Of a stretch of DNA of 64,000 nt, positions 4,794-46,570 are shown in pieces. The notes under the pieces are model-generated. The model had not been told where the DNA came from, made no database searches, and worked only from the letters and a program-made list of their open reading frames with translations. Position 1 is the stretch's first letter, and each line of letters opens with the position of its first letter. Made by a program: the position numbers and the translations under genes. The stretch is from Eledone cirrhosa (lineage: Eukaryota), in the NCBI GenBank assembly GCA_964016885.1, contig OZ024740.1:262570001-262634000 (forward strand), in the 5' to 3' direction.

Positions 4794-4810
4794 ATTATTA
4801 TGATTATATA

Positions 4811-5000: not shown

Positions 5001-5015
5001 ATTATTATTATTATT

Positions 5016-5071
5016 ATAAAGTACCAGTAATGTACTGGTTAATTGCTGGCCTTGTGCCAAAAGTAGAAACA
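5016..5071 (+). mobile_element. 5'-truncated second copy of the SINE 3' end
   Basis: Repeats ATAAAGTACCAGTAAT...GCTGGCCTTGTGCCAAAAGTAGAAACA, followed by (ATT)n. Confidence 0.8.
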
Positions 5072-5099
5072 ATTATTATTATTATTATTTTTATTATTC

Positions 5100-6950: not shown

Positions 6951-6984
6951 TGTTTCATTATGTACGTTATCATTATGCAGTTTT

Positions 6985-7170
6985 GTGGTGGATTGGCAGT
7001 ATCGGTAGAGGGTCTGATGCCATGCTTTGCAACAAAGAGTTATGGCTCTTTATGGTCTGAGTTCAAATCCCGCCGAGGTTAACTTTGCCTTTCATCCTTA
7101 CGGGGTCGATCAAATAAAGCACCAGTAATACACTGGGATAATTGCTGGTCTTGTGCCAAAAGTAGAAACA
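6985..7170 (+). mobile_element. tRNA-derived SINE
   Basis: Same family as 4811-5000; A/B boxes and ATT tail. Confidence 0.9.
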
Positions 7171-7177
7171 ATTATTA

Positions 7178-15740: not shown

Positions 15741-16159
15741 CACCCCCAGTGATTTTTGCGTAGCACCATCACACTGTAGACGAACATAAATAAACAAACA
15801 AATAGATAAAAACCTAATAAAACAAAATAAACAAAAACAAACACAAGTTTCATTGTAATGTTTGAATGTCTGACTTGTTTGTTTTTCTCCTTTGCGTTTT
15901 TCGTTTTACAAGGCCAGTAACATCGGTTACTAGTGTTGTTGCTGCTGCTGCTAAGGGAAGTAGGGGTTGTTGTGTTCATAACTTTTGAATCCCATATCCG
16001 TTGATGCGTTTGCTTCTGTCTGTGTTCTGTTCTATAATTTTTCGACTATAATTTTTTCTATCATTTTTTTCCCTTTCATCCCTACGTGGCCGATACCACA
16101 AAGCACCTGCAACACACCGGGATAATTGCTGGCCCCGTGCCAAAAGCAGAAGCACTTAT

Positions 16160-17611: not shown

Positions 17612-17635
17612 TATTATTATTATTATTATTATTAT

Positions 17636-18270: not shown

Positions 18271-21200
18271 GGCGACCTACGTAGTAAATCGTATTATCGT
18301 GAGCTCCGCAAAATTTGTTATTTTCAGTTGTTTAAAATTGCCATTTATGGAAAATCTTTATTGTTAACTGTATATAAGTGCACATACATTGTTTTCTGAA
18401 AAGGACAGTCAAAAAGATTGGGGCCTTGTGCCCAAAATTTAAATTTTTATAATTATCAAAAAAATTTCTTTGAAAAATCATGGCCGACTCACAGCTGCAC
18501 CAAGCAGCTGAGAGCCTTCCTCACAAACTAACACCTTACACCGAGACCACCATTGTAAATATTACTACGTTTGCCAACAATAAAAATATAAGCAGCAGCA
18601 ATATTTTAAATTTGTCTCAGGCAGACATTCATTTCCCGCAATTACCAATGACTGCAGGTGTTAAAGCCGCCACCCCCACTACCATCACCACTGCGACAAC
18701 AGAAACAAAAGAAAAAAATAAATTAACTCGTGATATCGAAATGAATTCAACCAAAATGAACTATTCCACACCGAACACCACTGACGCCACCACAACTGAA
18801 ACTAAAATTAATAATAACAAAAATAACGATAACAACAACAGCAACAATGAAATTAAGAAAACTACCCTGTCTTTTGCGAGAATAGCAAAAACGTGCGAAG
18901 CGCTCCAGATAACTCAGGAGGAATTAGAAGAAGCCAAATGAATGGTAAAGAAAGATGGGTACAGGGTCAGCCCCCCCCCCCCACAAACACACATAATAAA
19001 ATGGAGCATCGTCGCTTATGCACCGTGTCTTATCGGACAATTAACATAAAATCGCGCCATGTGGAACGGGCATCCTAGTCCCAAACCCAAAACGCTTTGG
19101 GACATGTGTGGGCAACAAAAACCCACATCAGACGTGGGCAGAAATATGGAACCGTGGACGTGTTCTTTGAAACACCACAGGAGGCCAGAGAACACTCCAT
19201 GGCCCCATTAAGAAGTGACGACTTCACACTCGTCCCAAGCTATGGTGGCCTGAGACTCGTGATCATCAGGGTGACCCACGTTCCACCGGCCATCGAAATT
19301 CCCTGGCTAATGGCTGCGTCCTCGCCGGCATCGAGGCCAACACCAAGATAATCGAAATAGCGAAAGAAAAGCAGGAGAACTGGTCCGGATTTGGGATGGA
19401 GCTCCTGATCCAAGCGGATCATAAAAACATTGAGCAGATCCCAGAGGTAATAGACCTCACTGACGGCAGCCACCTCACCGTAATCGTCGAGGGCAGAAGG
19501 CCTAGGTGTGTCGTTTGTGGTGAAGGAACCCACCCAAGAGCTTTCTGCCCTCAGGCTAAAAGGTTGAGGCCACCTCTCTTACCCACCCCAGTGACTCAAC
19601 CATCAAAACTGCCAGCAGCAGGGATGGCAGCAACAACTGTAGCAGCAACAACAGAGGCAACTGTAACAGCAACAACCGCAGCAACAGTAGCAAAACCAAC
19701 ACCACCACCACCCAACGCGCCATAACTAGCACCATCGCCTATACCATCCACCACGCCACAACCAAAACTAATACCTGCGGAGGATTTTCCACTCCCCGGC
19801 TTATCGCAACTGGAGACAGATTGTGACGACGAGTAGTGGGAATCGGTATCAGTAAAAAAGAAAAAAAGAAACCAAAAAAGAAAAAAAATACTCTTCCTTC
19901 CTCCTCCAAAAGCAAAATACAGAGGGAAACAAATAAACTATCAAACAAAAAGTTAGGACAGATATGCCACCATCCACACCAGCATCACCAACCCCATCAC
20001 CACAAACACCAACACCATCACCATCATTAACTCCAACACCACCATCACCAACACCACAAAAATCACCAAAAAGCGAAACAGAAACAAACCATAACAAACG
20101 CAGACAAAACAAAACAACCAAAACGATACACACTACAGAGCATTAAATTTGAACAACAACCAATTATTACACTACATCCAACAAAACACCAGCATCACAG
20201 AAAAAGACTACACAACAACCCAAAAGTTCACACCACCTCCACACATACAAATCACTCGCATCACACAGAAAACGTACACGACACTAAAACAAAAATTCCC
20301 CAAAGACATCGGAGACTTCCGACAAACACTCTCCAGGAGGATTTATAAGGACATCCTTCCGGAAGAGGCCACAAGCAGTGAAAAGGATGGACAAACCATC
20401 CTTCTACGAGAAGTAAGGTAAGTGGTCTTTCCCATCTTTTCCACTCCATTTCAACATGATCTCACTCATAATAGGCAGCATAAATGCGCGTGTCTTGTGG
20501 TCGTTATGGAAGCTGGGCCACCTGCTCAACGACCTCAGGTCACTAAACATAGATGTAGTGGCCATCAGCGAGACCAGAATCTCCGAAGCACGGGCCTTCG
20601 CACCAATCTTAGGCGGCTACGATGTGTACGCATCTCCCAGCCGTCCGGGATCGGGGGAGTGGGGGAGTTGCTGTGCTTTTTCGGAGAAGTTTGGATCTCG
20701 CCATACGGGCCATCTTCCTGGACCCAGAAGGTAAGTTGGTGGTGCTAGACGTGACCAGCGGAGACGGGCAATCTTTCAGGCTAGTGGCCGTCTATGCCCC
20801 AACAGGAGCAGGGCGGCCTGATTTCTTTCGGCGTATGTAGACCTTTCTTGGATCGTCCGCTCTTTAGTGTTAGTGGGCGACTGGAACGGGATCTTAGATG
20901 CACGCTGGGACTGTGTGGGCTTAACGGATAGGAGAGGAGGGTGCAAGAGCCTCACCATCCTGCTAAGGCGTTTTGAACTGACTGACAGGTACCGATTGGA
21001 TTTCCCGAATGTGCCAATGTGGACTTGGACAAATCGCATAGGGTCATCCAGATCATATCTAGATAGAGTATTTTGTAAGGAAATAGATAGGTCTAGCATA
21101 GGCTGTCCACAATTCAAGATAGTCAGCTACACGGACCACAAATTCGTGATATGTGTGCTTGACTTAGATAGGCTTCATAGACGAGGACCCAGCTACTGGA

Positions 21201-23554
21201 AGCTAAACGCGTCCTTTCCAGCGCGCAAGGCCTACAGAGACCAGATTAGCGAACTAGTTAAGCGGGCGTTGACGGGGGCCTTCGTCAACAGCAAGTGGTG
21301 GTTTGCTCTAAAAAGAGCAATTAGAATAGAGTCCATTAGATTTAGTAAGGCTTTATCAATAGAGCAAAATAGAGCAGAGGGAGAATTAGTTACATGCCAG
21401 ACTAGTTCGGAGGCCTCTTGGCGGACGTCTACTGCAACTGGCAACAGAACGGGAGGATCCGATCAAGGGGGATAACATAGATAATTTTAGGCCCATAACT
21501 CTGCTAAACACAGAGTTCAAGATTTTGGCCAAGGTGCTAGCAATTAGGTTGGCGCTTGTCGTTGGTGGTCTGGTGGGAGAGGCGCAGACATGCACCATTC
21601 CAGAAATTTCCAGCCACGACAACCTACACCTCATGCGATACATCGTAGAGAGGGTAGCTAGGGAACCTGGCACGGGTGGGTCCTTGATCAATTTAGATCA
21701 GTCGAAACCATTAGATAGGGTCGACCATCTTTACCTAGCGGCATCCTGAGGGCGGCTGGCTTTGGGCCCGTCTTTAGAGGCTGGATCGCAGCGACATCTG
21801 CTCTGTGGTGAGAGTGAACGGTCACCTTTCGGAACCGTTCAACATCATGCGCTCGGTCCGCCAAGGATGTCCCCTCTCGTCCCTCTTGTACATATTGACT
21901 CTCGAGCCATTACTGCACAAACTGGAGAAGTTCAGGGAGGTCCCGCGCGAACTAGGATGCGGAAAATCCGTGTCAGCATATGCGGACGATGTCACCGTAG
22001 TGGTGTCGAACGCCAAACACATCGAGGCGATCGGCACTACACTAAGAGAATACGAAGCGGTGACAGCAGCAATGATCAACCAGGAAAAGTCAGTGGGCCT
22101 GCAGCTCGGCACCTGGAGAGGAAGGTCCATGCCGTCCAACAGCGTCGTCGGGCGCTGGATGGACGGACCGGTTAAATTGCTCAGGGTCTGGTTCGGTCCG
22201 GACCTCCAGACGGACAAAAACTCGGACGAGGTGACGAGCAGGGTGGGTTCTGTCACCCAGAAATGGGCGGAGAGGAAGCTATCCTTGAAAGGTCGAGCGG
22301 AGGTGGCTAACGCGTACATCGCGTCCGTCATCTACTACCGCCTGACCGTTGTACCTTGTCCTAAGCCCCGCCTGACTGCGCTGGAGCGTTTGTTCTTTCG
22401 CTTTTTGTGGAAGGGACGCGCTCCGATGGAGGGCTGGAGCATGCCGTGGCTGATGATGCGCAGACACGCGCTCAGGCTACGACATCTCCACCTCTTCCTC
22501 GAGAGTGATCAGGTGTGGTCGCCGTTTGCTAGACACGTCTTTCCCCAGCTCGTCTCCTTGACGGAGCTGCAGTCCTGGGTCAAGCGAAGACCGAGAGGGA
22601 GCGCTTGGAGACTGGAATGTCTTCAGGCGCTCACAGCCCTCGACCAATCGGGCAATGTGATCGGTGGAAACTCCACCTTGGCGTTCTATAGAGGATTACT
22701 GGAGGGGAAGAGCGACGACGTACTTGGAGAAAATCTAGGCGTCGACGAAAATCAACTAGCCAATCTCTTCGGAAGGACTTTCCGGCCAGGGCCTATGGAC
22801 AACTTCCAGAAATCCCTGGCCTGGCAGTGCTATCGGGGTGCTTTGCCAGTTTGGGATAAACTCTACAGGCATGGAGGTGCCGTCAGCCGGGCATGTCCGA
22901 GATGCGCGCAGGGCGACGAAACCGTCCTGCACGCACTCGTCCAGTGTCCGAGCATTGCTGACTTGTGGGTTTATGTCGAACACCTGCTGTTACGTGCAGG
23001 ACGGATCCAGCTATCAGCTGAGTCCATCGTGAGGATTGCCCCGCCCCCTTCCTTTAGCCGGGAAGGGCACGCAATTTTTATCTGTCTGGTGGCCATGGCG
23101 AAAGAGATAGTATGATGGACACGTTTGAAAGGTCTGAAGACGAGCACGTACCTCTTCGGTGATGCCCTGATTAACTTTTTCAAATTTCATTTGAAAAGGA
23201 AAATCAGGGTAGAGAGGGAAGTGCTCTCTTCCCAGCATTTTGTTGAAAGATGGGTGAGAGAAGCAAGTATGGCCCGAGTGAATGGGCCTACTCTGAGTAT
23301 GTGTCTGTAAATTAAAGGTGGAAAACTGGGAGAGGGCACTTGCCCTGGTGGTTAGGGCCACTGTGGTCTTTTAATGGGCTTTCTCCACAAATGTCCCTCG
23401 GAAGTCTCCCCACTATTGGGGAATTTTTCTTTGTTATTTTATTTCAACCTCTGTTTTTTTTACACGCAGAAATGCCCATTTGTACCGGCCTGTATTGTCC
23501 TGTACTGTCCTTAATGTCTACTTTATGTAAACCCTTGTGGTTAATAAAGAAAAC
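18271..23554 (+). mobile_element. Tx1 LINE copy B, both termini present, degraded (ORF1 type 2)
   Basis: Starts GGCGACCTACGTAG after (TAT)n. ORF1 (18480-20421) and ORF2 (20456-23310) carry stops, frameshifts and deletions (large one near 21390). AATAAA plus (ATT)n tail. Confidence 0.95.
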
Positions 23555-23572
23555 ATTATTATTATTATTATA

Positions 23573-23617
<45 letters not shown>

Positions 23618-26600
23618 GGCGACCTACGTAGGAAATCGTATTATCGTGAGCTCCGCAAAGGTTTGTTATTTCCGTTTGTTTAAAAATTGCCATTTATGGA
23701 AAATGTTATTGTAAACTGTTTATAAGCACACATACATTGTTTTCCGAAGAGGACACCCAAAAAGATTGGGGCCTTGTGCCCAAAATTTTAACTTTTACTA
23801 TTATCAAAAAATTTCTTTGAAAAAATGGCTAATTCACCTCTACAACAAGGAGCTGAAAGCCTTCCTCACAAATTAACACCTCACACCGACACCACCATTG
23901 TAAATGTTACTACGTTTGCCAACACAAAAAAAAAATATAAGCAGTAGCAATATTTTAAATTTGTCTCAGGCAGACATTCATTTCCCGCCATTACCAATGA
24001 CTGCAGGTGTTTAACCCTCCACCACCACCACCACCGCGACAACAGAAACAAAAGAAGAAAAAAATAAATTAACTCGTGACGTCGAAATGAAATCAAGCAA
24101 AATGGACTCTTCCCCACCAAAGACGACTGACGTCACCACCACCACAACTGAAAATAAAATTAATATTAACGATAGCAACAACAACAACAATGACATTATA
24201 AAACCGACCCTCAGTTTCGCCATCGTAGCAAAACAATTCGAAGCGTTCACGGTAACTCAAGAAGATTTAGAAAATGCCAAACAAATGGTAAAGAAAGATG
24301 GGTACAGGGTCAGCCTCACCCCCCACCTAATAAAATGGAGCATCGGCGCCTGTGCACCGTGTCGTATAGAACAATAAATGTAAAATCGCGCCGAGTGGAA
24401 CGGGCATCCGAGTCCCAAATCCAAAAAGCTTTGGGACATGTGTGGGCAAGAAAAACCCACATCAGACGTGGGCAAAAGTATGGAACCGTGGATGTGTTCT
24501 TTGAAACACCAGAGGAGGCTAGAGAACACTCCATGGCCCCATTAAAAAGTGACGACCTCACACTCTTCCCAAGCTATTGTGGCCAGAGACTCGTAAAGAT
24601 CAGGGTGACCCACGTTCCACCGGCCATCGAAATTCCCTGGCTAATAGCGGCTGTCCTCGCCGGCATCGAAGCCAACACGAAAATAATAGCAGTAGCAAAA
24701 GAAAAGCAGGAAAACTGGTCCGGATCTGGGATGGAGCTCCTGATCCAAGCGGACCAAAAAAGCATTGAGGAGATCCCAGAGGTAATAGACCTCACTGACG
24801 GCAGCCACCTCACGGTAATTGTCGAGGGCAGAAGACCTAGGTGTGTCGTTTGTGGTGAAGGAACCCACCTAAGGGCTTTCTGCCCTCAGGCTAAAAGGTT
24901 GAGGCCACCTCTCCTGCCCACCCCAGTGACACAACCATCAACACCACCAGTAGCAGAAATGGCAGCAACAACTGTAGCAGCAACAACAGAAGCAACTATA
25001 ACAGCAACAACTCCAGCAACAGTAGCAAAACCAACACCACTACCACCACCAGCAAAACCAACACCACCACCACCCAACGCTTCAGAACTAGCACCAGCGC
25101 CTACACCATCCACCACACCACAACCAAAACTAACGGCTGTGGAGGATTTTCCACTTCCCGGCCTATCACAACTGGAGACAGATTGTGACGACGAGGAGTG
25201 GGAAACGATATCCGGAAAAAAAAAAGAAACCAAAAAAGAAAAAATTCTCTTCCTTCCCCCTCCAAAAACAAAATACAGAGGGAAACAAATAAACTAAGAA
25301 ACAAAAAAGTTAGGACAGATATGCCACCATCCACACCAGCATCACCAACCCCATCAACCCAAACACCAGCACCATCACCATCATTATCCCCAGCACCACC
25401 ATCACCTACACCACAAAAGTCACCAAAAAGCGAAACAAACAAACCCACAACAAACGCAAACAAAACAAAACAACCAAAACGATACACACTACACAGCATT
25501 AAATTTGAACAACAAGCAATTATTACACTACGTCCAACACAACACCAGCATCACAGAAAAAGACTACACAACAACCCCAAAATTCACACCACCTCCACAC
25601 ATACAAATCACTCGCATCACACAGAAAACGTACATGACACTAAAACAAAAATTCCCCAAAGACATCGGAGACTTCCGACAAGCACTCTCCAGGAGGATTT
25701 ATAAGGACATCCTTCCTGAGGAGGCCACAAGCAGTGAAAAGGATGGAAAAGCCGTCCTTCCCCTACGAGAAGTAAGGTAAGTGGTCTTTCCCATCTTTTC
25801 CACTCCTTTTCAACATGACCTCACTCAGAATAGGCAGCATAAATGCGCGTGGCTTGGGGTCATCATGGAAGCAGGGACACCTGCTCAACGACCTCAGGTC
25901 ACTAAACATAGATGTAGTGGCCATCAGCGAGACCAGAATCTCCGAAGCACAGGCTTTCGCACCGATCTTCGGCGGCTACGATGTGTACGCATCTGCCAGC
26001 CGTCCTGGATCGGGGGGAGGAGTTGCTGTGCTTTTTCGGAGAGGTTTGGATCTTGCCATACGGGCCATCTTCCTGGACCCAGAAGGTAAGTTGGTGGTGC
26101 TGGACGTGACCAGCGGAGACGGGCAAGCTTTCAGGTTAGTGGCCGTCTATGCCCCGACAGGAGCAGGGCGGCCTGATTTCTTCCGGCGTCTGGAGACCTT
26201 TCTTGGAACGTCCCGCTCTTTAGTGTTAGTGGGCGACTGGAACGGGATCTTAGATGCACGCTGGGATTGTGTGAGATTAGTGGATAGGGAAGGAGGGTGC
26301 AAGAGTCTCACCAACCTGCCCAGACGTTTTGAACTGTCTGACAGGTACCGAATGGATTTCCCGAATGTACCAATGTGGACTTGGACAAATCGCATAGGGT
26401 CATCCAGATCATATCTAGATAGAGTATTTTGTAGGGAAATAGATAGGTCTAGCATAGGCTGTCCACAATTCAAGATAGTCAGCTACACGGACTACAAAAT
26501 CGTGATCTGTGTGCTTGACTTAGATAGGCTTCATAGACGAGGACCCGGCTACTGGAAGCTAAACGCGTCCTTACCAGCGCGCAAGGCCTACAGAGACCGG

Positions 26601-29458
26601 ATTAGCGAACTAGTTAAGCGGGCGTTGACGGGGGCCATCGTCAACAACAAGTGGTGGTTTGCTCTGAAAAGAGCAATTAGAATAGAGTCCATTAGGTTTA
26701 GTAAGACTTTAGCAATAGAGAAAAATAGAGCAGAGGGAGAATTAGAAAATTAGATGAGGCGCTTAGCAAAGGCATCGCGACCGACGTACTTGCGGCGAAA
26801 TTGGCCCTTGACCAATTCTTCAATGCAAAGCACGAAGGCTGCGTTGTCAGAGCTAGGGTGCGTGCTCTCAGACACGAGGGGACGAAAGCCGTTCAATGGG
26901 CCCGAGTGGCGGAGGCGCGTCGTGGCAACAAAGCCACGATCCGGTCTTTGGTGGACCACGACGGGCGCATGCTACTCGATCCCGGGCAAATGTGTGAAGC
27001 TTTTCAGCGACACTTCGGGGGCAGTGGCGGGCCGGATCGAGGGATGGACTTTAGTGTCTACCTCGACGGACTGCCGCGGCTTTCGGCCACTGAGGCGGAG
27101 TGTTGCGAAAAGCCGATAACAACCGCTGAAGTACGGGATGCAATGACTAGTTGCACAAGGGGTAAATCGCCTGGTTTGGATGGTCTGCCCTATGAACTTT
27201 ACGTACAAATGCCAAACTTGTTCGGAGGCCTCTTGGCGGACGTCTACTGCAACTGGCAACAGAACGGGAGAATTCCCAGCTCTGTGAGCCGAGGAGCGGT
27301 GGCGCTGCTGAGAAAGGATCCGAACAAGGGGGATAACATAGATAATTTTAGGCCCATAACTCTGCTAAACACAGAGTTCAAGATTTTGGCCAAGGTGCTA
27401 GCAAAGAGGTTGGCGCTTGTCGTTGGTGGTCTGGTGGGAGAGGCGCAGACATGCGCCATTCCCGACAGATCCATCCACGACAACCTCCACCTCATGCGAT
27501 ACATCGTAGAGAGGGTAGCTAGGGAACCTGGCACGGGTGGGTCTTTGATCAATTTAGATCAGTCGAAAGCCTTCGATAGGGTCGACCATCATTACCTAGC
27601 GGCAGTCCTGAGGGCGGCTGGCTTTGAGCCCGTCTTCAGAGGCTGGATCGCTGCCATGCACAGCGACATCTGCTCTGTAGTGAGAGTGAACGGTCACCTT
27701 TCGGAACCGTTCAACATCATGCGCTCGGTCCGCCAAGGATGTCCCCTCTCGTCCCTATTGTACGTATTGACTCTCGAGCCATTACTGCACAAACTGGAGA
27801 CGTTGAGGGGGGTCCCGCGCGAACTAGGATGCGGAAGATCCGTGTCAGCATATGCCGACGATGTCACCGTAGTGGTGTCGAACGCCAAACACATCGAGGC
27901 GATCGGCACTACACTAAGAGAATACGAAGCGGTGACAGGAGCAATGATCAACCAGGAAAAGTCTGTGGGCCTGCAGCTCGGCACCTGGAGAGGCAGGTCC
28001 ATGCCGTCCAACAGCGTCGTCGGGCGCTGGATGGACGGACCGGTTAAATTGCTAGGGGTCTGGTTCGGTCCAGACCTCCAGACGGACAAAAACTGGGACG
28101 AGGTGACGAGCAGGGTGGCTTCTCTCACCCAGTAATGGGCCGAGAGGAAGCTATCCCTGAAAGGTCGAGCGGAGGTGGCGAATGCGTACATCGCATCCGT
28201 CATCTACTACCGCCTGACCGTCGTACCTTGTCCTAAGCCCCGCCTGACTGCGCTGGAGCGTTTGCTCTTTCGCTTCTTGTGGAAGGGACGCGCTCCGATG
28301 GTCAGGCGGTCCATCTGCTGTCAACACCCGCTACGTGGAGGGCTGGGCATGCCGTGGCTGATGATGCGCAGACACGCGCTCAGGCTACGACATCTCCACC
28401 TCTTCCTCGACGGTGATCAGGTGTGGTCGCCGTTTGCAAGACACGTTTTTCCCCAGCTCGTCTCCTTGACGGAGCTGCAGTCCTGGGTCAAGCGAAGACC
28501 GAGAGGGAGCGCTTGGAGACTGGAATGTCTTCAGGCGCTCACAGCCCTCGGCCAATCGGGCAATGTGATCGGTGGAAACTCCACCTTGGCGTTCTATAGG
28601 GGATTAGTGGAGGGGAAGAGCGACGACGTACTTGGAGAAACTCTAGGCGTCGACGAAAATCAACTAGCCAATCTCTTCGGAAGGACTTTCGGGCCGGGGC
28701 CTATGGACAACTTCCAGAAATCCCTGGCCTGGCAGTGCTACCGAGGAGCTTTGCCAGTTCGGGATAAACTCTACAGGCATGGAGGTGCCGTCAGCCGGGC
28801 ATGTCCGAGATGCGCGCAGGGCGACGAAACCGTCCTGCACGCACTCGTCCAGTGTCCGAGCATTGCTCACTTGTGGGTTTATGTCGAACACCTGCTGTCA
28901 CGTGTAGGACCTATCCAGCTATCAGCTGAGTCCATCGTGAGGATTGCCCCGCCCCCTTCCTTTAGCCTGGAAGGGCAGGCAGTTTTTATCTGTCTGGTGG
29001 CCATGGCGAAAGAGATAGTATGGTGGACACGTTTGAAAGGGCTGAAGACGAGCACTTACCTCTTCGGTGATGCCCTGATTAACTTTTTCAAATTTCATTT
29101 GAAAAGGAAAATCAGGGTAGAGAAGGAAGTGCTCTCTTCCCACCATTTTGTTGAAAGATGGGTGAGAGAAGCAAGTATGGCCCGAATGAATGGGCCTTCT
29201 CTGAGTATGTGTCTGTAAATTAAAGGTGGAAAACTGGGAGAGGGCACTTGCCCTGGTGGTCAGGGCCACTGTGGTCTTTTAATGGGCTTTCTCCACAAAT
29301 GTCCCTTGGAAGTCTCCCCCTATTGGGGAATTTTTCTTTGTTATTTTATTTCAACCTATGTTTTTTTACACGCAGAAATGCCCATTTGTACCGTCCTGTA
29401 TTGTCCTGTACTGTCCTTAATGTCTACTTTATGTGAACCCTTGTGGTTAATAAAGAAA

Positions 29459-29460
<2 letters not shown>
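23618..29460 (+). mobile_element. Tx1 LINE copy C, full-length, mildly degraded (ORF1 type 2)
   Basis: Same 5' end as B. ORF1 23825-25780 is frameshifted; ORF2 25815-29218 has a frameshift near 26745 and a stop at 28133. Confidence 0.96.
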
Positions 29461-29511
<51 letters not shown>

Positions 29512-29724
29512 GAATGCCATGGTTGACGGAGGCTCGGCTCTGTAAGGTATAGTAATTTTTAACCGTTAAAACAATTGTAAATTGTTTAAAACTTGAACCA
29601 AATTGTTGATAAAGACACCCTCCTCCTCGTGAGAGGGGTCTTTCTGTCCGTTATTTGGCCCTTCGGGGTTAAATAGCCAGTTATTGGGGTTTTGTACCCA
29701 AAATTTCATTTTAAACAAAAAAAC

Positions 29725-31824
29725 ATGGCTACCAAAAAAAAAAAATTTCATACGTCACTCCCACTCATTCCGTCTTCTTCTTCCTCAATCATCACTACAG
29801 GAGAGAGAAGATTGTCTCTCTCCCTCCCTTCTTTAAATGTGTCTCTCTCCCTACCTTCTCTTTCGCAAGCGACGAAAGAAAAGAAAAGTCTCGTGCAAAG
29901 CGTGCAAGGTTTCTCCACGACGACGACGACAGCGACGAAACAGGTGTGCGGGAAATACGAAAACCCAGTTCATTCGTCTGACGTCAGGAATAATAGCAGT
30001 AGCAGCCGTAATAACAACAGCAACAGTGACAATGAAAACAACAGTAGCAGCCGCAACAGCATCACCAGCAGCATAAACAACAACAGCATTAGCAGCAGCA
30101 ACACCAACAACAACCACAGCAACAGCGGCGGAGGCAGTAGTCGTAGTACCTGCAGCAACAACAAAAGTACCAGCAGCTCTGACGACAACAACAACAGCAG
30201 AGAAAAACCAATCTCATTTGCAGGTATTGCGAAAAACCTGGAAACAATCCTCATAACAAATGAGGAATTAGAGGAAGCGAAGAAGATGGTGACAAAGAAC
30301 GGACACCGAGCAATCTGCAAGGCAGCGAAAAATTTTTTCGAAACCCAAGAGCACTGTACGGTCACGTACCGTACAGTAAGTACAAAATCCCGTAGGGTGG
30401 AAAGAGCCACAGAGGCCCAAATACAAAAAGCCTTGGGGTCTGTGTGGCAGAGGAAAACGCACATCACCCGAGGCAAAAAATACGCCACCGTAGACGTACT
30501 TTTTGCCACACCCCAGGAGGCAAAGGCCCAATCAGTAGTGACCCTAAGGAGCGAGGAAATGGTGTTGGTGCCCTCCTACTGCGGGCAAAAAATTGTGAGG
30601 GTCAAACTGACCCACGTCCCCCCCGGAATGACCCCTTCTTGGCTGGCCGCGTCTGTCCTCGTCGGAATCGAGGACAAAACAACTGTACTGCAAGTACAGA
30701 AAAAAGTAAGAGAAGATTGGGTCGGCTCCTCCATTGAGATGCTAATCCAAACCAACCAGGAGTGCATCGAAGCTATCCCGGATGTGATAGACTTCGATAA
30801 CGGCACTCAACTGCCCATAAGTGTTGAGGGCAAACGCCCGAAATGCTTTCGCTGTGGATCGAAGACTCACCTCAGGGCCTTCTGCAACGAGAAGACCCTG
30901 AGAAAGGAGAAAACCCCCCTCCTCCCGAATCCGGTTCCACGGCTACCAGCAACAGGACAAGCGGCAACCAGGAACGATAGGTCCGTGGCACCCATACCCA
31001 CTCCACGGAAATCAAAGACAGCAGCAGCAGTGGAAATATTAACAACAACAACAGCAATACCAAATGCAGCTGCAACAGAGACTCCAGTGCAAACATCACC
31101 AACAACAACAAGTGAAAGAGTGGAGCTGGTACCCCTCCCCGACCTTACAGAATCAGACATGGAGTGTGAGGTGGGAGAGGGATGGCAAAAGGTCTCAAGA
31201 AGGCACAAACGCAGAAGCAGCGCATCGTCGCCTTTGAAAAGGGAGGAAAGAAATGAGAAAAGGGTAAAGTCTACTGCAAAGAGACCCACAGCAGCAACAC
31301 CACCAACACCATCACCACCCACACCAGCACCACCATCACCACCGGCGACAACCCCACCGCCAACAACACCTTCAACACCACCACCACAAGCACCAACATC
31401 GCAAACACAACAACAAAACACACACACCCAGCAACAACGACAAGAAAATAGCAGAACCACACCCCACCCCCAGAAAAACAAATGCACGGCAATAAACACA
31501 CACAACAAGAAACTAATGACTTACATAATTGAACACACAGACATTTCACAACAGGACTACATAATACCAGCACCAATCAAAACGCCAACTAACATAAGAC
31601 TGCTAAAAATAGCACAGAAACAATACACAAACATTAAAACGAAATTCCCCAACGCAGTTGGTGATTTCAGGGACCTAGGAGGAACCATTAATCGAAGAGT
31701 ATATTCAGACATTCTCTTAGAAGAGCCGACGACCAGCCGAAGGGACGATTCAACGGTCCCTTCACCAGACGATCAAGTGAAAAGGGATGTAAAAACCATC
31801 CCTCCTCTACCAAAAATACGGTAA
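29725..31824 (+). CDS. Tx1 ORF1 nucleic-acid-binding protein (~699 aa): S/N-rich N-terminus, CCHC knuckle, P/T-rich linker, conserved C-terminal domain
   Basis: Open frame 29692..31824, first ATG at 29725; CFRCGSKTHLRAFC. Confidence 0.9.
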   Translation: MATKKKKFHTSLPLIPSSSSSIITTGERRLSLSLPSLNVSLSLPSLSQATKEKKSLVQSVQGFSTTTTTATKQVCGKYENPVHSSDVRNNSSSSRNNNSNSDNENNSSSRNSITSSINNNSISSSNTNNNHSNSGGGSSRSTCSNNKSTSSSDDNNNSREKPISFAGIAKNLETILITNEELEEAKKMVTKNGHRAICKAAKNFFETQEHCTVTYRTVSTKSRRVERATEAQIQKALGSVWQRKTHITRGKKYATVDVLFATPQEAKAQSVVTLRSEEMVLVPSYCGQKIVRVKLTHVPPGMTPSWLAASVLVGIEDKTTVLQVQKKVREDWVGSSIEMLIQTNQECIEAIPDVIDFDNGTQLPISVEGKRPKCFRCGSKTHLRAFCNEKTLRKEKTPLLPNPVPRLPATGQAATRNDRSVAPIPTPRKSKTAAAVEILTTTTAIPNAAATETPVQTSPTTTSERVELVPLPDLTESDMECEVGEGWQKVSRRHKRRSSASSPLKREERNEKRVKSTAKRPTAATPPTPSPPTPAPPSPPATTPPPTTPSTPPPQAPTSQTQQQNTHTQQQRQENSRTTPHPQKNKCTAINTHNKKLMTYIIEHTDISQQDYIIPAPIKTPTNIRLLKIAQKQYTNIKTKFPNAVGDFRDLGGTINRRVYSDILLEEPTTSRRDDSTVPSPDDQVKRDVKTIPPLPKIR

Positions 31825-31859
31825 GTGGTCTTTCCCATCTTTTCCACTCTATTTTAAAC

Positions 31860-34800
31860 ATGACCTCACTCAGAATAGGCAGCATAAATGCGCGTGGCTT
31901 GGGGTCGTCATGGAAGCAGGGTCACCTGCTCAACGACCTCAGGTCACTAAACATAGATGTAGTGGCCATCAGCGAGACCAGAATCTCCGAAGCACGGGCC
32001 TTCGCACCGATCTTCGGCGGCTACGATGTGTACGCATCTCCCAGCCGTCCTGGATCGGGTGGAGGAGTTGCTGTGCTTTTTCGGAGAGGTTTGGATCTCG
32101 CCATACGGGCCATCTTCCTGGACCCAGAGGGTAAGCTGGTGGTGCTGGACGTGACCAGCGGAGACGGGCAAGCTTTCAGGCTAGTGGCCGTCTATGCCCC
32201 GACAGGAGCAGGGCGGCCTGATTTCTTCCGGCGTCTGGAGACCTTTCTTGGAACGTCGCGCTCTTTAGTGTTAGTGGGCGACTGGAACGGGATCTTAGAT
32301 GCACGCTGGGACTGTGTGGGATTAGCGGATAGGGGTGGAGGGTGCAAGAGCCTCACCAACCTGCTCAGGCGTTTTGAACTGTCTGACAGGTACCGATTGG
32401 ATTTCCCGAATGTGCCAATGTGGACTTGGACAAACCGCATAGGGTCATCCAGATCATATCTAGATAGAGTATTTTGTAGGGAAATAGATAGGTCTAGCAT
32501 AGGCTGTCCACAATTCAAGATAGTCAGCTACACGGACCACAAATTCGTGATCTGTGTGCTTGACTTAGATAGGCTTCATAGACGAGGACCCGGCTACTGG
32601 AAGCTAAACGCGTCCTTACCAGCGCGCAAGGCCTACAGAGACCGGATTAGCGAACTAGTTAAGCGGGCGTTGACGGGGGCCATCGTCAACAACAAGTGGT
32701 GGTTTGCTCTGAAAAGAGCGATTAGAATAGAATCGATTAGGTTTAGTAAGGCTTTAGCAATAGAGAAAAATAGAGCAGAGGGAGAACTAGTTAGAAAATT
32801 AGACGAGGCGCTTAGCAAAGGCATTGCGACCGACGTGCTTGCGGCGAAATTGGCCCTTGACCAATTCTTCAATGCAAAGCACGAAGGCTGCGTTGTCAGA
32901 GCTAGGGTGCGTGCTCTCAGACACGAGGGGACGAAAGCCGTTCAATGGGCCCGAGTGGCGGAGGCGCGTCGTGGCAACAAAGCCACGATCCGGTCTTTGG
33001 TGGACCACGACGGGCGCATGCTACTCGATCCCGGGCAAATGTGTGAAGCTTTTCAGCGACACTTCGCTCAGCTGTTCGGGGGCAGCGGGGGGCCGGGTAG
33101 AGGGATGGACTTTAGTGTCTACCTCGACGGACTGCCGCGGCTCTCGGCCACTGAGGCGAAGTGTTGCGAAAAGCCGATAACAGCCGCTGAAGTAAGGGAG
33201 GCAATGACTGGCTGCACAAGGGGTAAATCGCCTGGTTTGGATGGTCTGCCCTATGAACTTTACGTACAGATGCCAGACTTGTTCGGAGGCCTCTTGGCGG
33301 ACGTCTACTGCAACTGGCAACAGAACGGGAGAATTCCCAGTTCTGTGAGCCGAGGAGCGGTGGCACTGCTGAGAAAGGATCCGAACAAGGGGGATAACAT
33401 AGACAATTTCCGGCCCATAACTCTGCTAAACACAGAGTTTAAGATTTTGGCCAAGGTGCTAGCAAAGAGGTTGGCGCTTGTCGTTGGTGGTCTGGTGGGA
33501 GAGGCGCAGACATGCGCCATTCCCGACAGATCCATCCACGACAACCTCCACCTCATGCGATACATCGTAGAGAGGGTAGCTAGGGAACCTGGCACGGGTG
33601 GGTCCTTGATCAATTTAGATCAGTCGAAAGCTTTCGATAGGGTCGACCATCGTTACCTAGCGGCAGTCCTGAGGGCGGCTGGCTTTGGGCCCGTCTTCAG
33701 AGGCTGGATCGCTGCCATGCACAGCGACATCTGCTCTGTGGTGAGAGTGAACGGTCACCTGTCGGAACCGTTCAACATCATGCGCTCGGTCCGCCAAGGA
33801 TGTCCCCTCTCGTCCCTCTTGTACGTATTGACTCTCGAGCCATTACTGCACAAACTGGAGACGTTGAGGGGAGTCCCGCGCGAACTAGGATGCGGAAGAT
33901 CCGTGTCAGCATATGCGGACGATGTCACCGTAGTGGTGTCGAACGCCAAACACATCGAGGCGATCGGCACTACACTAAGAGAATACGAAGCGGTGACAGG
34001 AGCAATGATCAACCAGGAAAAGTCAGTGGGCCTGCAGCTCGGCACCTGGAGAGGCAGGTCCATGCCGTCCAACAGCGTCGTCGGGCGCTGGACGGACGGA
34101 CCGGTTAAATTGCTAGGGGTCTGGTTCGGTCCGGACCTCCAGACGGACAAAAACTGGGACGAGGTGACGAGCAGGGTGGCTTCTCTCACCCAGAAATGGG
34201 CGGAGAGGAAGCTATCCCTGAAAGGTCGAGCGGAGGTGGCTAACGCGTACATCGCGTCTGTCATCTGCTACCGCCTAACCGTCGTACCTTGTCCTAAGCC
34301 TCGCCTGACTGCGCTGGAGCGTTTGCTCTTTCGCTTTTTGTGGAAGGGACGTGCTCCGATGGTCAGGCGGTCCATCTGTTGTCAACACCCGCTACGTGGA
34401 GGGCTGGGCATGCCGTGGCTGATGATGCGCAGGCACGCGCTCAGGCTACGACATCTCCACCTCTTCCTCGACGGTGATCAGGTGTGGTCGCCGTTTGCTA
34501 GACGCGTTTTTCCCCAGCTCGTTTCCTTGACGGAGCTGCAGTCCTGGGTCAAGCGAAGACCGAGAGGGAGCGCCTGGAGACTGGAATGTCTTCAGGCGCT
34601 CACAGCCCTCGACCAATCGGGCAATGTGATCGGTGGAAACTCCACCTCGGCGTTCTATAGAGGATTAGTGGAGGGGAAGAGCGACGACGTACTTGGGGAA
34701 ACTCTAGGCGTCGACGAAAATCAACTAGCCAATCTCTTCGGAAGAACCTTCGGGCCAGGGCCTATGGACAACTTCCAGAAATCTCTGGCCTGGCAGTGCT

Positions 34801-35279
34801 ACCGAGGAGCCTTGCCAGTTCGGGATAAACTCTACAGGCATGGAGGTGCCGTCAGCCGGGCATGTCCGAGATGCGCGCAGGGCGACGAAACCGTCCTGCA
34901 CGCACTCGTCCAGTGTCCGAAAATTGCTGACTTGTGGGTTTATGTCGAACACCTGCTGTCGCGTTTAGGACGGATCCAGCTATCATCTGAGTCTATCGTG
35001 AGGATTGCCCCGCCCTCCTCCTTTAGCCGGGAAGGGCAGGCAGTTTTTATCTGTCTGGTGGCCATGGCGAAAGAGATAGTATGGTGGACACGTTTGAAAG
35101 GGCTGAAGACGAGCACTTACCTCTTCGGTGATGCTCTGATTGACTTTTTCAAATTTCATTTGAAAAGGAAAATCAGAGTAGAGAAGGAAGTGCTCTCTTC
35201 CCAGCATTTTGTTGAAAGATGGGTGAGAGAAGCAAGAATGGCCCGAGTGAATGGGCCGACTCTGAGTATATATCTGTAA
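31860..35279 (+). CDS. Tx1/L1 ORF2: APE endonuclease, reverse transcriptase and C-terminal zinc-binding domain (1139 aa)
   Basis: INARG, SETR, GDWN, YLDR, TDH; LDQSKAFDRVDH, RQGCPLS, YADD; CPRC...ETVLHALVQC. All intact. Confidence 0.97.
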   Translation: MTSLRIGSINARGLGSSWKQGHLLNDLRSLNIDVVAISETRISEARAFAPIFGGYDVYASPSRPGSGGGVAVLFRRGLDLAIRAIFLDPEGKLVVLDVTSGDGQAFRLVAVYAPTGAGRPDFFRRLETFLGTSRSLVLVGDWNGILDARWDCVGLADRGGGCKSLTNLLRRFELSDRYRLDFPNVPMWTWTNRIGSSRSYLDRVFCREIDRSSIGCPQFKIVSYTDHKFVICVLDLDRLHRRGPGYWKLNASLPARKAYRDRISELVKRALTGAIVNNKWWFALKRAIRIESIRFSKALAIEKNRAEGELVRKLDEALSKGIATDVLAAKLALDQFFNAKHEGCVVRARVRALRHEGTKAVQWARVAEARRGNKATIRSLVDHDGRMLLDPGQMCEAFQRHFAQLFGGSGGPGRGMDFSVYLDGLPRLSATEAKCCEKPITAAEVREAMTGCTRGKSPGLDGLPYELYVQMPDLFGGLLADVYCNWQQNGRIPSSVSRGAVALLRKDPNKGDNIDNFRPITLLNTEFKILAKVLAKRLALVVGGLVGEAQTCAIPDRSIHDNLHLMRYIVERVAREPGTGGSLINLDQSKAFDRVDHRYLAAVLRAAGFGPVFRGWIAAMHSDICSVVRVNGHLSEPFNIMRSVRQGCPLSSLLYVLTLEPLLHKLETLRGVPRELGCGRSVSAYADDVTVVVSNAKHIEAIGTTLREYEAVTGAMINQEKSVGLQLGTWRGRSMPSNSVVGRWTDGPVKLLGVWFGPDLQTDKNWDEVTSRVASLTQKWAERKLSLKGRAEVANAYIASVICYRLTVVPCPKPRLTALERLLFRFLWKGRAPMVRRSICCQHPLRGGLGMPWLMMRRHALRLRHLHLFLDGDQVWSPFARRVFPQLVSLTELQSWVKRRPRGSAWRLECLQALTALDQSGNVIGGNSTSAFYRGLVEGKSDDVLGETLGVDENQLANLFGRTFGPGPMDNFQKSLAWQCYRGALPVRDKLYRHGGAVSRACPRCAQGDETVLHALVQCPKIADLWVYVEHLLSRLGRIQLSSESIVRIAPPSSFSREGQAVFICLVAMAKEIVWWTRLKGLKTSTYLFGDALIDFFKFHLKRKIRVEKEVLSSQHFVERWVREARMARVNGPTLSIYL

Positions 35280-35540
35280 ACTAAAGGTGGAAAACTGGGA
35301 GAGGGCACTTGCCTTGGTGGTCAGGGTCATTGTGGCTTTTTACTGGGCTTTCTCCACAAATGTCCCTCCGAAGTCTCCCCCCTATTGGGGAATTTTTCAT
35401 TGTTATTTTCATTGTTATTTTTGTTACATCCTCTATTTTTGTTTTTTTTACACGCAGAAATGCCCATTTGTACCGTCCTGCATTGTCCTGCACTGTCCTT
35501 AATGTCTACTTTATGTAAACCCTTGTGGTTAATAAAGAAA

Positions 35541-35578
<38 letters not shown>

Positions 35579-35590
35579 ATTATTATTATT

Positions 35591-42388: not shown

Positions 42389-42435
42389 ATATATAATAAT
42401 GATTTATTTATTTTAATAATAATAATAATAATAAT

Positions 42436-45400
42436 GATTTCTTTATTGGCCACAAGGGCTGACATCAAGAAAAACATTACAGACGGCACAGTACGGTACA
42501 GGACAGTACGATGTGGGTTTTGTGCGTGTAAATATTTTTATTATTTATATAAGAAAAGCAGTGGGCAGAGGGCAGTGAGCGCCTGGAGACATTCCAGTTT
42601 CCAAGCGCTATTCCTCGGTCTTTTCCTGACCCAGGACTGCAGCTCCGTCAATGAGACGAGCTGTGGGAAAACGTGCCTGGTGAACGGCGACCACACCCTG
42701 TTCACCGTCAAGGAGGCACCAGAGATGTCGCAGCCTCGGCGCATGTTTGCGCTTCATCAGCCATGGCATGCCCTGTCCTCCACGCAACGGGTGTTGACAG
42801 CAGATGGATCGTCTGACCATGGGAGCGCGTCCCTTCCACAAAAAGCGGAAGAGGACGCGCTCCATTTTCTTGAGAGTTGGGCCGGGACAAGGGACGACGG
42901 TGAGGCGGTAGCAGATGACGGATGCGATGTACGCATTCGCCACCTCCGCTCGACCTTTCAGGGATAGCTTCCTCTCTGCCCATTTCTGGGTGAGAGAAGC
43001 CACTCTGTTCGTTACCTCGCTCCAGTTTATCTCCATCTGGAGGTCTGGTCCGAACCAGACCCCGAGCAATTTAACCGGTCCGCCCGTCCAACGCCCCACG
43101 ACGCTGTAGGAGGGCATGGACTTGCCTCTCCAGGTGCCGAGCTGCAAGCCCACCGACTTTTACTGGTTTATCTTTGCTCCTGTCACTGCTTCGTGTTCCT
43201 TGAGAGCGATGCCGAGCATCTGGACGTTTCTGGTGCTCGACACCTGAAGTTATCAATAACATCCCCTTTGTTCGGGTCTTATCTCAGCTGCGCCACCGCT
43301 CCCCGGCTCACAAAACTGGGAATGCTCCAGTTCTGCTGCCAGTTGCAGTAGACGTCTGCCAAGAGGTCACCGAACAAGTCTGTCATAAATGCATAAAGCT
43401 CGTAGGGCAGACCATCCAAACCTGGCGATTTACACCTCGTGTAGTTAGCTATCGCTTCCCGTATTTCACCGGCTGTTATTGGATTTTGCAACACTGTCCT
43501 GCGGTTGGCGAGAGCCGCGGCAGTCCGTCGAGGTATACACTGAAGTCCATAACCCGATCCGGCCCACCGCTGCTACCGAACAGGTCAGCAAAGTGCTGCT
43601 GAAAAGCTTCACCATCTGCTCGGGTTCGAGCAACACGCGCCAGTTTTGGTCAGATAAAGACCGAATTGTGGCTTTGTTGCCACGTCGCCCCTCTGCTACC
43701 CGGGCCCATTGGACCGCTTTTGTAACCTCGTGTTTCAGAGCTCGTGCTCTCGCTCTGACAACGCAGCCTTCGTGTTTTGCGTTGAAGAATTGGTGGAGTG
43801 CCAATCTCGCCGCAAGCACGATGCGTGTCCCAAACGCCAATTCTAGCTTTCTACTAGCTCTCCCTCTACTATATTTTCCTCTATCACTAGTCCTTTGTTA
43901 AACCTAATCGACTCACTTTAATTGGCCTTTTCAGGGCGAATCACCACCTGTTGTTGACGACCGCTCCCGTCAACGCCCGCTTAACTAATACGCTACTCCG
44001 GTCTGTGTAGACTTTGCGCGCCGGGAAAGCCGCGTTCAGCTTCCGGTAACCGTTCCTTGTCTATGAAGTCTGTCTATGCCGATCTTACAGATCACAAATT
44101 TGTGGTCTGTGTAGTCGACTATTTTAAATTGGGGACAACTTATACTAGCCTTGTCTAGTTCTCTGCAGAATGCCCTATCGAGATACTATCTGGATGACAC
44201 GATGCGGTTTGTCCATGTCCACGTTGGCACATTAGGGTGATCCAGTCGATACCTGTCAGACAGTTCAAAACGTCTGAGCAGGTTGGTGAGGCTCTTTCAC
44301 CCTCCTCCCCCTATCCACTAGCCCCACACAATCCCAGCGTGCATCCAAGATATCGTTCCAGTCGCCCACTAACACTAAATAGCGGGACGTTCCAAGAAAG
44401 GTCTCTAGACATCTGAAGAAATCTGGCCGTCCTGTCCCTGTCGGGGCATAGACGGCTACTAGCCTGAACGCGTTGCCTTCGGTGCCGCTTACGTTCAGCA
44501 CCACCGACTTCCCTTCTGGGTCCAGGAAGATAGTCTGTATGGCGAGACCCAAGCCTTTCCGAAACAACACAGCCACTCCGCCCCCCTCCCCCGGACGGCT
44601 CGGAGATGCGTACACCTCGTAACCGTCGAAGATCGATGCCAAAGCTTGCGTTTCGGAGATTCTCGTCTCGCTGATGGCCACCACATTTATGTTTAGTGAC
44701 CTGAGGTCGTTAAGCAAGTGACCCTGCTTCCAAACCGAGCTCAAGCCACGCACGTTTACACTTCCGATCCTGAATACGGCCATGTTGTGTGAGGAACGGG
44801 GCAAGTGAGAAAGGATCACTTACCTTGATCGTCTGGTGGAGGGACCGTTGAATCGTCCCTTCGGCTGGTCGTCGGCTCTTCTGTGAGTATATCCGAGTAT
44901 ACTCTCCCGTTGAGTGTCCCTCCTAGGTCTCTGAAATCACCAACTGCGTTGGGGAATTTTAATGTTTTTGTATTGTTTCTGTGATATTCTTACCAGTCTT
45001 ATGTTCGTTGGTGTTTTGATTGGTGCTGGTATTATGTAGTCGTGCTGTGAAATGGCTGTGTGTTCAATTATGTAAGTCATTAGTTTCTTGTTGTGTATAT
45101 TTATTGCTGTGCATTTGTTTTTCTGGAGGTGTGGTGTGGTTCTGATATTTTCTTCTCGTTGTTGCTGGGTGTGTGTGTTTGTTGTTGTGTTTGCGATGTT
45201 GGTGCTTGTGGTGGTGTTGTTGAAGGTGTTGTTGTTGTTGGCGGTGGGGTAGCCGCCGGTGGTGATGGTAGTGCTAGTGTAGGTGGTGATGGTGTTGGTG
45301 GTGTTGCTGCTGTAAATCTCTTTGCAGTAACCTTCACCCTTTTTTCATTTCTTCCCTTCCTTTTCGAAGGCGACGATGCGCTGCTTCTGCGTTCGTGCCT

Positions 45401-46539: not shown

Positions 46540-46570
<31 letters not shown>

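Follow-up and report, generated by a model that had tools for sequence, protein, structure and literature searches.

A covarying 3' hairpin in a Tx1-like branch of L1-superfamily LINEs, probably borrowed by two unrelated SINEs

In this study, a 64-kb stretch of Eledone cirrhosa DNA was analyzed (contig OZ024740.1, positions 262,570,001 to 262,634,000; hereafter the window, to which plain coordinates refer). The window is an animal repeat cluster in which Tx1-like long interspersed elements (LINEs) and a short interspersed element (SINE) share a hairpin with a CUYGU loop, found at the 3' ends of both and again in the LINE 5' untranslated regions (UTRs). Comparison with elements of a second host indicates that a Tx1-like branch of the L1 superfamily probably uses this hairpin as a stringent recognition stem-loop at the RNA 3' end, and that two unrelated SINEs have probably borrowed it. 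An earlier, sequence-only reading of the window had proposed that the LINE recognizes the hairpin at both RNA ends; all six coordinates that it named read as given.

The window LINEs are non-long-terminal-repeat retrotransposons of the L1 superfamily, with an N-terminal APE endonuclease, a reverse transcriptase (RT) and a C-terminal zf-RVT domain. These domains were found by Pfam and PDB searches, and the best solved relative is human L1 ORF2p (E 2e-52). In a quick tree of 41 rows, built without named Tx1 reference families (hence "Tx1-like"), copy D fell among elements sited in U1/U2 genes, apart from plant L1s. The LINE copies, their open reading frames (ORFs) and their hairpins, written as stem-loop-stem, are as follows:

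1..4794, + strand: Tx1-like LINE copy A; ORFs broken, ORF1 ATG at 80; 5' end cut off by the window boundary
14..27, + strand: 5' UTR hairpin of copy A, GGGCC-TTTT-GGCCC; 52 nt upstream of the ORF1 ATG, homologous by position to the hairpin of B/C
4769..4781, + strand: 3' hairpin of copy A, AGCC-CTTGT-GACC; one inner pair broken
18271..23555, + strand: Tx1-like LINE copy B; intact 5' end; frameshifts and an internal deletion; ORF1 ATG at 18480
18421..18433, + strand: 5' UTR hairpin of copy B, GGGC-CTTGT-GCCC; 46 nt before the ORF1 ATG (18480)
23530..23542, + strand: 3' hairpin of copy B, AACC-CTTGT-GGTT, then AATAAAG and the ATT tail; absent from the sequence-only list
23555..23617, unstranded: (ATT)21, spacer between copies B and C
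23618..29460, + strand: Tx1-like LINE copy C
23769..23781, + strand: 5' UTR hairpin of copy C, GGGC-CTTGT-GCCC
29436..29448, + strand: 3' hairpin of copy C, AACC-CTTGT-GGTT
29461..29511, unstranded: (ATT)17, spacer between copies C and D
29512..35542, + strand: Tx1-like LINE copy D; ORF1 and ORF2 frames both open
29687..29699, + strand: 5' UTR hairpin of copy D, GGGT-TTTGT-ACCC; 25 nt before the ORF1 ATG
29725..31824, + strand: copy D ORF1, 699 aa, with a CCHC knuckle
31863..35279, + strand: copy D ORF2, 1138 aa counted from the first Met; APE endonuclease, RT, zf-RVT
35518..35530, + strand: 3' hairpin of copy D, AACC-CTTGT-GGTT
42435..46668, - strand: E2, 5'-less, with D-type ORF1, ORF2 and an A-type 3' end
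42460-42448, - strand: 3' hairpin of E2, (A)GCC-CTTGT-GGC(C)
46790..48222, - strand: E1, with a B-type 5' UTR and part of ORF1
48075-48063, - strand: 5' UTR hairpin of E1, GGGT-CTTGA-GCCC

Copies B, C and D form a head-to-tail array with (ATT)21 and (ATT)17 between them. LINE junctions of the window lie in (ATT)n on the 5' side in 4/4 cases and on the 3' side in 5/5, which indicates a repeated target, as in the Tx1 clade. What had been read as a single copy E is actually two elements, E1 (48222-46790) and E2 (46668-42435). The stem claimed for the LINE 3' ends holds with all four pairs in three of the five copies (B, C and D), but is reduced to three pairs in E2 and two in copy A. A CTTGT loop closed by four Watson-Crick pairs occurs eight times in the 64 kb, always at element ends, compared with a mean of 0.77 and a maximum of 3 in 30 block shuffles; the eight are repeat copies of three distinct stems. 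In single-sequence folds, the named hairpin was dominant in the copy B 5' UTR (0.97), at the 3' ends of copies B, C and D (0.55-0.89) and in SINE copy S6 (0.66-0.87; the SINE copies are listed below), and stood at 0-0.01 at the 3' end of copy A and in SINE copies S1, S2 and S4. The broken pair of copy A is largely private to that copy. When contigs and reads of four sequencing runs (X1, X5, X6 and X7) were aligned to positions 4520-5012, yielding 244 differences beyond those listed here, the pair-restoring G at position 4779 made up 63,800 of the 66,075 depth in X1 and 2,320 of 2,660 reads in X7.

Relatives were sought in a scan of genome contigs. Of the 42 loci returned, 39 belong to tandem arrays of animal origin that had been binned in one bacterial assembly (CAXXMW01). 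The ORF2 of these array elements is 41% identical to that of copy D, with fourfold sites identical at 67/238 (saturated), and they form one clade with copy D at an SH-aLRT of 100 in the quick 41-row tree, the careful search being unfinished. Their 3' ends carry GGC-CT[T/C/A]GT-GCC in 44/44 distinct segments, which are close copies of two families and not independent cases. The hairpin has GAC and a C-rich run upstream; downstream come another short hairpin, AATAAA and the start of the next copy. The arrays themselves (L065-L102 and L105) have a period of ~6.4-6.8 kb, without spacer or poly(A), and their 5' UTRs are interchangeable; locus L162 consists of 3.1-kb 5'-truncated units.

The termini were then aligned for covariation, a check that the sequence-only reading had proposed. 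Three stems on one loop are not unusual in the window, so that the window alone is weak proof of covariation; with the rows of the relatives and of the second SINE, the claim of covarying stems stands. In an alignment of 16 related rows, anchored on the loop (which favours structure), 90.6% of cells are paired, two-sided changes occur at 4/4 pairs, and 0/500 shuffles reach the score, a count that is not a probability. Slid controls of this set gave 25-50% paired cells. The 16 rows were taken from a 24-row set (91.3% paired) with three squid-type SINE rows added, and with near-duplicates, the SINE copies except S6 and a non-coding unit of locus L172 left out. Across them, U at loop position 2 and G at position 4 are constant, and position 3 varies. 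A conserved, covarying 3' hairpin in the Tx1-like lineage is thus supported by sequence comparison, and the lineage shows the mark of a stringent-type LINE, a conserved 3' stem-loop with compensatory changes. An 18-nt 3' UTR motif (G run, AA, T run) is a second conserved, putative signal of copy D and its 41%-identical relatives, common to them at 0/300 shuffles and lying ~120-280 nt upstream of the hairpin. It was located at 23420-23430, 29320-29340 and 35387-35405, and also at L065:10862-10880.

The SINE of the window is present in six copies of ~185 bp with seven 3' ends:

4815..5005, + strand: SINE S1 with tRNA-like head, directly after the copy A ATT tail; hairpin 4976-4988, mutated at 4986
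5017..5075, + strand: duplicated SINE tail of S1, 71-bp period; hairpin TGGC-CTTGT-GCCA at 5047-5059, the one named in the sequence-only reading
6984..7172, + strand: SINE S2; 13-bp target duplication (1 mismatch); hairpin 7146-7158 with a U-G closing pair
16068..16155, + strand: SINE S3, 3' part only; loop CCCGT
50663..50846, - strand: SINE S4; outer pair broken
53903..54087, - strand: SINE S5; 11-bp target duplication; intact hairpin 53927-53915
62042..62225, - strand: SINE S6; B box at its position 79; hairpin 62065-62053 intact; target duplication of 10-13 bp, flanking DNA not repetitive

This SINE may be of the octopus/MetaSINE type; no match to MetaSINE or the octopus OR-OK SINEs was found in the one supplement file searched. 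Of the RNA polymerase III promoter boxes, the B box was found, and the A-box pattern used gave no match. Target duplications of 10-13 bp were found in three of the five copies searched, with one copy ambiguous and one having none. The stem claimed for the SINE 3' end is kept with four pairs in 5/7 ends, counting G-U pairs and including one end with an altered loop, but broken in 2/7; at position 4986 of S1, the pair-restoring letter makes up 94-97% in all four runs.

The link between SINE and LINE extends beyond the hairpin. The stem-to-ATT-tail distance is 12 nt in both, and the last 25 nt of the SINE match the ends of copies A and E2 at 17/25 positions in exact register (0 and 2 of 2000 shuffles). 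Matches to the 3' ends of the relatives reach 15-16/25 (8 and 15 of 2000 shuffles). The window also contains minus-strand copies that we take to be Dong-R4-like and an element at 57200-61500 that we take to be CR1-like, the labels resting on translations. The SINE matched three Dong ends at 9-11/25 and the CR1 end at 13/25, values that are not significant (504-1998 of 2000 shuffles). Thus, of the LINE ends compared, the Dong and CR1 ends fit the SINE tail worse than those of A and E2, contrary to what would be seen if the tail belonged to another LINE of the window. This comparison covered the Tx1-like, Dong-R4 and CR1 ends of the window and the ends of the relatives. The closest partner of the SINE need not be copies B-D, whose 3' ends match it less well than those of A and E2. 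Loose ends at 4967-4970 in the read alignments, with an agreement of 0.46-0.57, revealed a longer SINE form in which GAC and a C-rich run precede the hairpin; the 3' ends of the relatives have this layout too (compared by eye). The longer form has ~30 extra bases and is common in three runs, with no copy in the window. The depth on the SINE was ~40- to 160-fold above that on the LINE end (depth, not copy number), and head-to-tail SINE joints were present at a fraction of a percent of depth.

The insertion sites gave a different picture. Clean SINE insertions lie in ordinary A+T-rich DNA, with S2 and S6 outside microsatellites, and their duplications begin with TAT or ATTAT, in line with pairing of the AUU tail to the nicked strand. 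The proposal that the SINE shares the (ATT)n target of Tx1 was not supported when the sites were compared: only the TAT/ATTAT microhomology is common to both, and ATT-rich flanks before the SINE head were few in the reads (depth below ~3% of that of the head, much of it from LINE ends). The proposed mimicry of the Tx1 3' end therefore stands for the hairpin, which lies in the same register, but not for the target. Considering the register match together with the different sites, the machinery may be borrowed and the target, on present evidence, is not.

A second SINE, ~290 bp long and with a tRNA head, was found on the same contigs as the Tx1-like arrays of the second host (copies at L173:10920-11205, L174, L175 and L176; C9, C17, C18 and C19 of the CAXXMW01 set). 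It shows no match to the window SINE, and Rfam and ARAGORN found nothing in it. Target duplications of 12-17 bp accompany 5/8 copies, with one more less certain. Its tail carries GAC-CTYGT-GTC, a second paired segment and TAAAT in 8/8 copies, which had been picked by the hairpin motif out of 27 matches; when folded, the hairpin is enclosed by a nested outer stem. By eye, the second SINE matches the Sepioth-SINE1 and Sepioth-SINE2A consensus along its length. The supplement of PMC5786205 describes these two as composed of a tRNA part, a Core, an RTE 5' part and an "unknown3'" tail, and the hairpin falls in this tail part of listed unknown origin. The sequence match points to a squid-like second host, and the Tx1-like array family of the same contigs is a candidate partner of Sepioth-SINE1/2A.

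The hairpin is also present in the 5' UTRs, 25-52 nt before the ORF1 start in five of five window UTRs. Two details of the sequence-only reading need revision here. The copy A hairpin had been grouped with those that keep the same loop, but its loop is TTTT or CTTTTG; the UTR of copy D had been called otherwise unrelated, but the ORF1 cores of D and C are 55% identical. The 5' motifs of D and C are identical at 21/24 positions, and two of the three changes form a compensatory pair. Their UTRs are barely alike outside the motif (5/500 shuffles), and the fourfold sites of their ORF1 are saturated (13/54 identical). The conservation of the 5' hairpin despite saturated silent sites argues for selection. 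The UTRs of A and C are alike with a score of 54 (0/500 shuffles). Exchange of 5' modules is evident in this family: B/C and D are ~95% identical in ORF2 and the 3' UTR, whereas their ORF1 cores show the identity just given and their 5' UTRs differ, and E is composite. The copy B 5' hairpin resembles the 3' end of array element L096 (13/300 shuffles) and the SINE end (3-6/300), both uncorrected, which hints that the 5' copy may have begun as a captured 3' end in a tandem array. Within 29610-29677, the 5' UTR of copy D has two more hairpins: at 29626 one of three pairs with a CTCGT loop, set in a longer stem, and at 29650-29677 a UUCG loop on a 12-bp stem.

A mechanism can be proposed on this basis. 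The Tx1-like branch would have kept or regained stringent template choice, with ORF2p, translated from the RNA of the element, binding the stem-loop 12-30 nt from the RNA 3' end. Binding would place the RNA terminus at the nick, ready for target-primed reverse transcription, with the AUU tail paired to the nicked (AAT) strand. Members of the lineage, not necessarily copies B-D, would also copy in trans SINE RNAs with this hairpin at their ends. We consider it fairly probable that ORF2p recognizes the sequence of the loop and the shape of the stem, and that SINEs ending in the hairpin are copied in this way. Zebrafish L2 sets a precedent, its ORF2p being specific for the loop but general in its reading of the stem (PMC4176376), and human L1 ORF2p has a surface that holds the template stem-loop (PMC10830416). 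The 5' UTR copy may be a later addition in the families of this host, possibly a captured 3' end, kept by selection. More tentatively, ORF2p or ORF1p may bind it as a second site and thereby hold back ORF1 translation, switch the RNA to particle assembly or tie the RNA ends together. The widest reading of these sequences would be that a Tx1-type protein reads one five-base loop at both RNA ends, as a priming signal at the 3' end and as a switch for translation or packaging at the 5' end, and that two abundant but unrelated SINE families of cephalopod type, Sepioth-SINE1/2A among them, each took up this loop independently; as a whole it is rather doubtful.

In addition to the anchoring of the alignments, the relatedness of their rows and the choice of second-host SINE copies by motif, several observations weigh against a stringent, SINE-borrowed recognition hairpin. 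The stem has only 3-4 bp and the loop 5 nt, and eight other 5-nt loops in the window have 4-5 distinct stems each, more than CTTGT. The restoring G at position 4779 reached only 59% in X5 and 11% in X6. The ends of copies B and D match the SINE at 14/25, which is not significant (187 and 161 of 2000 shuffles), and in the second host the SINE tail has, apart from the hairpin, no significant likeness to the Tx1 3' ends (357-496 of 500 shuffles). All LINE copies sit in (ATT)n and the clean SINE insertions do not, whereas the Tx1-mobilised SINEU has the same target as its partner (PMC4494074). The hairpin layout also occurs in non-coding units of loci L161 and L172, where the outer stem is lettered differently and one family has two pairs broken. 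As for the 5' copy, single-sequence folds are poor in copy D (0.09) and E1 (0.07), the loop differs in copy A, and the 5' UTRs of the relatives lack a conserved hairpin (10 loose matches in 45 stretches, background 18%).

Part of this evidence would suit a binding site for a host protein acting in RNA stability, export, germline localisation or translation. Such a site would account for the hairpin at both LINE ends, in two unrelated SINEs and in non-coding units, would explain the 5' UTR copy as easily as the 3' copy, and would agree with the different SINE and LINE targets and with second-host tails that have the hairpin alone in common. It is silent on the enzyme that copies the SINE, and we judge it improbable: the Dong-R4 and CR1 ends lack the hairpin, none occurs elsewhere in the window, its distance to the 3' end is short and fixed, and the SINE also matches A and E2 over the 12 nt between hairpin and tail. 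The match of the SINE to A and E2 in exact register also speaks against a SINE copied by an unsampled LINE clade (RTE, Nimb/I or L2/CR1), with the Tx1 hairpin a real signal and the likeness due to tail exchange or convergence. Mollusc SINE partners so far are CR1, CR1-Zenon, L2 and Nimb (PMC11481361), the count of SINEs with L1-clade tails stood at only three in 2013 (PMC3747384), the middle of the second-host SINE is RTE-derived, and the SINE greatly exceeds the (ATT)n-bound LINE in abundance and dispersal. However, by eye, none of the three clean sites shows a T stretch ~10 nt before the duplication, an RTE signature according to PMC6007223, and the RTE 3' ends in part 4 of the PMC5786205 supplement look different. 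We regard this explanation as quite improbable.

For the 5' copy, the main competing view is a relic without function, left by a captured 3' end or SINE tail and spread by recent exchange of 5' modules, so that only the 3' hairpin matters. The evident exchange (ORF2 but not ORF1 shared at 95% by B/C and D; E composite), the likeness of the copy B 5' hairpin to the L096 3' end and the SINE end, and relatives that do without a 5' copy are in keeping with it. Yet the hairpin is kept in the A, B/C/E1 and D types despite saturated ORF1 silent sites and with compensatory change, and passive transfer needs crossovers on both sides of ~30 nt; a relic is possible, though on the unlikely side. Chance likeness between short motifs of A+T-rich repeats could in principle link the three classes, as three stems on one loop are not rare in the window. 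Restriction to element ends, the 44/44 relatives, the second SINE and the covariation largely refute this for the 3' hairpin and leave it very improbable. A stringent 3' recognition stem-loop, probably borrowed by both SINEs, thus remains our preferred reading.

How far the hairpin extends across the Tx1-like elements was also considered. The nearest relatives of known context sit in U2 or U1 genes, and insertion into small nuclear RNA (snRNA) genes is a habit of Tx1 families (PMC4494074). Unlike the window copies, these snRNA-sited relatives have poly(A) ends where seen, and no such hairpin was found in them. Among more distant relatives (21-31% ORF2 identity), no hairpin was found in 23 downstream segments, several of them short or stopping before the real 3' end, with a descriptor that also missed L089 and L096. 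Sites of distant relatives in U1 or U2 genes are at L103:3036-3400, L007:5815, L004:4675 and L014:9202; the 5' region of L103 follows the U1 gene and has short pieces resembling histone gene starts. In the limpet Patella caerulea, a 29%-identity relative (the P0032 cluster) comprises 11 near-identical ORF2 proteins with neighbouring locus tags, which suggests another tandem array. A motif in the endonuclease-RT linker is clade-specific (7/7 clade members, 0/10 others). Clade-specific residues are spread over all domains (7 in the endonuclease, 12 in the linker, 16 in the RT and 19 in the C-terminal part), so the linker motif has no power to locate a binding site. Copy D ORF1 shows likeness to a ZCCHC3-type RNA-binding domain in language-model features (score 0.91, a lead only). 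Pfam at a threshold of 0.001 gave no match for it, its CCHC being visible by eye, and the CCHC of the L065 ORF1 is Pfam-positive. The ORF1 core had no homologue among the shorter proteins searched.

Other features of the window and of the second host were recorded as well. The Dong-R4-like copies lie at 5072-5539, 12155-14953, 35545-39292 and 48275-51819, in the same (ATT)n/(AAT)n tracts; they run the opposite way and are nested with the SINE and the Tx1-like copies. A non-coding 400-bp segment is duplicated at 86% identity (16156-16558 and 17626-18024), each copy after (ATT)n, and the two flank a 1-kb element fragment at 16558-17612. By description, the repeat mix of the window is compatible with the list for Octopus vulgaris in PMC13282606. 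Rfam and ARAGORN found nothing in the window. An HDV-like (hepatitis delta virus) ribozyme was not detected in 11 regions with a crude descriptor lacking a positive control, and a search for ribozymes at Rfam gathering scores was negative in the window, L065 and L096. A collection of viral contigs contained no LINE relative and no match to the SINE body motif; 54 viral-contig matches to a 16-nt SINE motif were attributed to chance. In the second host, the non-coding tandem units of 290-390 bp are at L161:7390-8870 and in L172 near 3400, 11570 and 19730. Such units also occur once per 8.16-kb repeat with a Gypsy-like frame and two tRNA-Ser genes. Four weak matches of L161 to Rfam, below the gathering score, were left unused.

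Stem-loop tails shared by a LINE and a SINE are well known in L2, CR1, RTE and the L1 of monocots and an alga (PMC3747384, PMC3472496). Similar to the present case, zebrafish ZfL2-1/ZfL2-2 and eel UnaL2 (PMC4176376) and the bivalve CR1/L2 pairs (PMC4824008) have a small 3' stem-loop with a constant loop, a covarying stem and a short-repeat tail in both LINE and SINE. Those are L2/CR1-clade elements, whereas here the LINE belongs to the L1 superfamily, the stem has 3-5 bp, ~25 nt are shared and a second copy lies in the 5' UTR. Closer in clade are monocot L1 lineage 1a (LINE1-1_ZM) with ZmSINE2/3 and Chlamydomonas L1-1_CR with SINEX-3 (PMC3472496, PMC3747384), which have a 3' hairpin with compensatory changes, a conserved loop and SINE partners; their loop is UCU and their tails are poly(A), in contrast to an animal Tx1-like element with a CUYGU loop and an (ATT)n tail or none. 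The crocodilian SINEU is likewise inferred to have been moved by a Tx1 element, Tx1-Mar, but that link is based on a shared target and 5' heads, with a poly(A) end and no mention of a "stem" in that paper (PMC4494074); here it is based on 3' structure, and the target is not clearly shared. The Kibi, Koshi and Keno families of Tx1, which target microsatellites and snRNA genes (PMC4494074), also have two ORFs, an APE endonuclease and a repeated target, which here is (ATT)n. Among the Ceph-SINEs, the tail of Sepioth-SINE1/2A holds GAC-CTTGT-GTC (PMC5786205), and the window SINE is a different family with the hairpin alone in common. The partners of MetaSINEs are given as unknown in PMC4824008. 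The homologous human L1 ORF2p with an Alu-like template cradles a stem-loop upstream of a single-stranded 3' tract (PMC10830416); it reads poly(A) bases and the stem with little sequence specificity, whereas the conserved loop here points to specific reading.

In the open-access literature searched (Repbase, Dfam and subscription literature lie outside the search), no account was found of this hairpin, of a 3' stem-loop common to a Tx1 element and a SINE, or of a regulatory design with a functional second hairpin before ORF1. Plant and algal cases have been used to debate whether L1-type elements were stringent at first and turned to poly(A) later (PMC3472496, PMC3747384). With its 13-nt covarying signal, its intact copy D and its natural SINE substrates, the present animal Tx1-like lineage opens this question of stringent origin to direct test. 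The hairpin also gives a candidate partner for SINE tails of listed unknown origin and a very small RNA tag for trans-mobilisation. If the hairpin is indeed read at both RNA ends, an animal member of the L1 superfamily would choose its template stringently and by structure, through a minimal signal that can be transferred.

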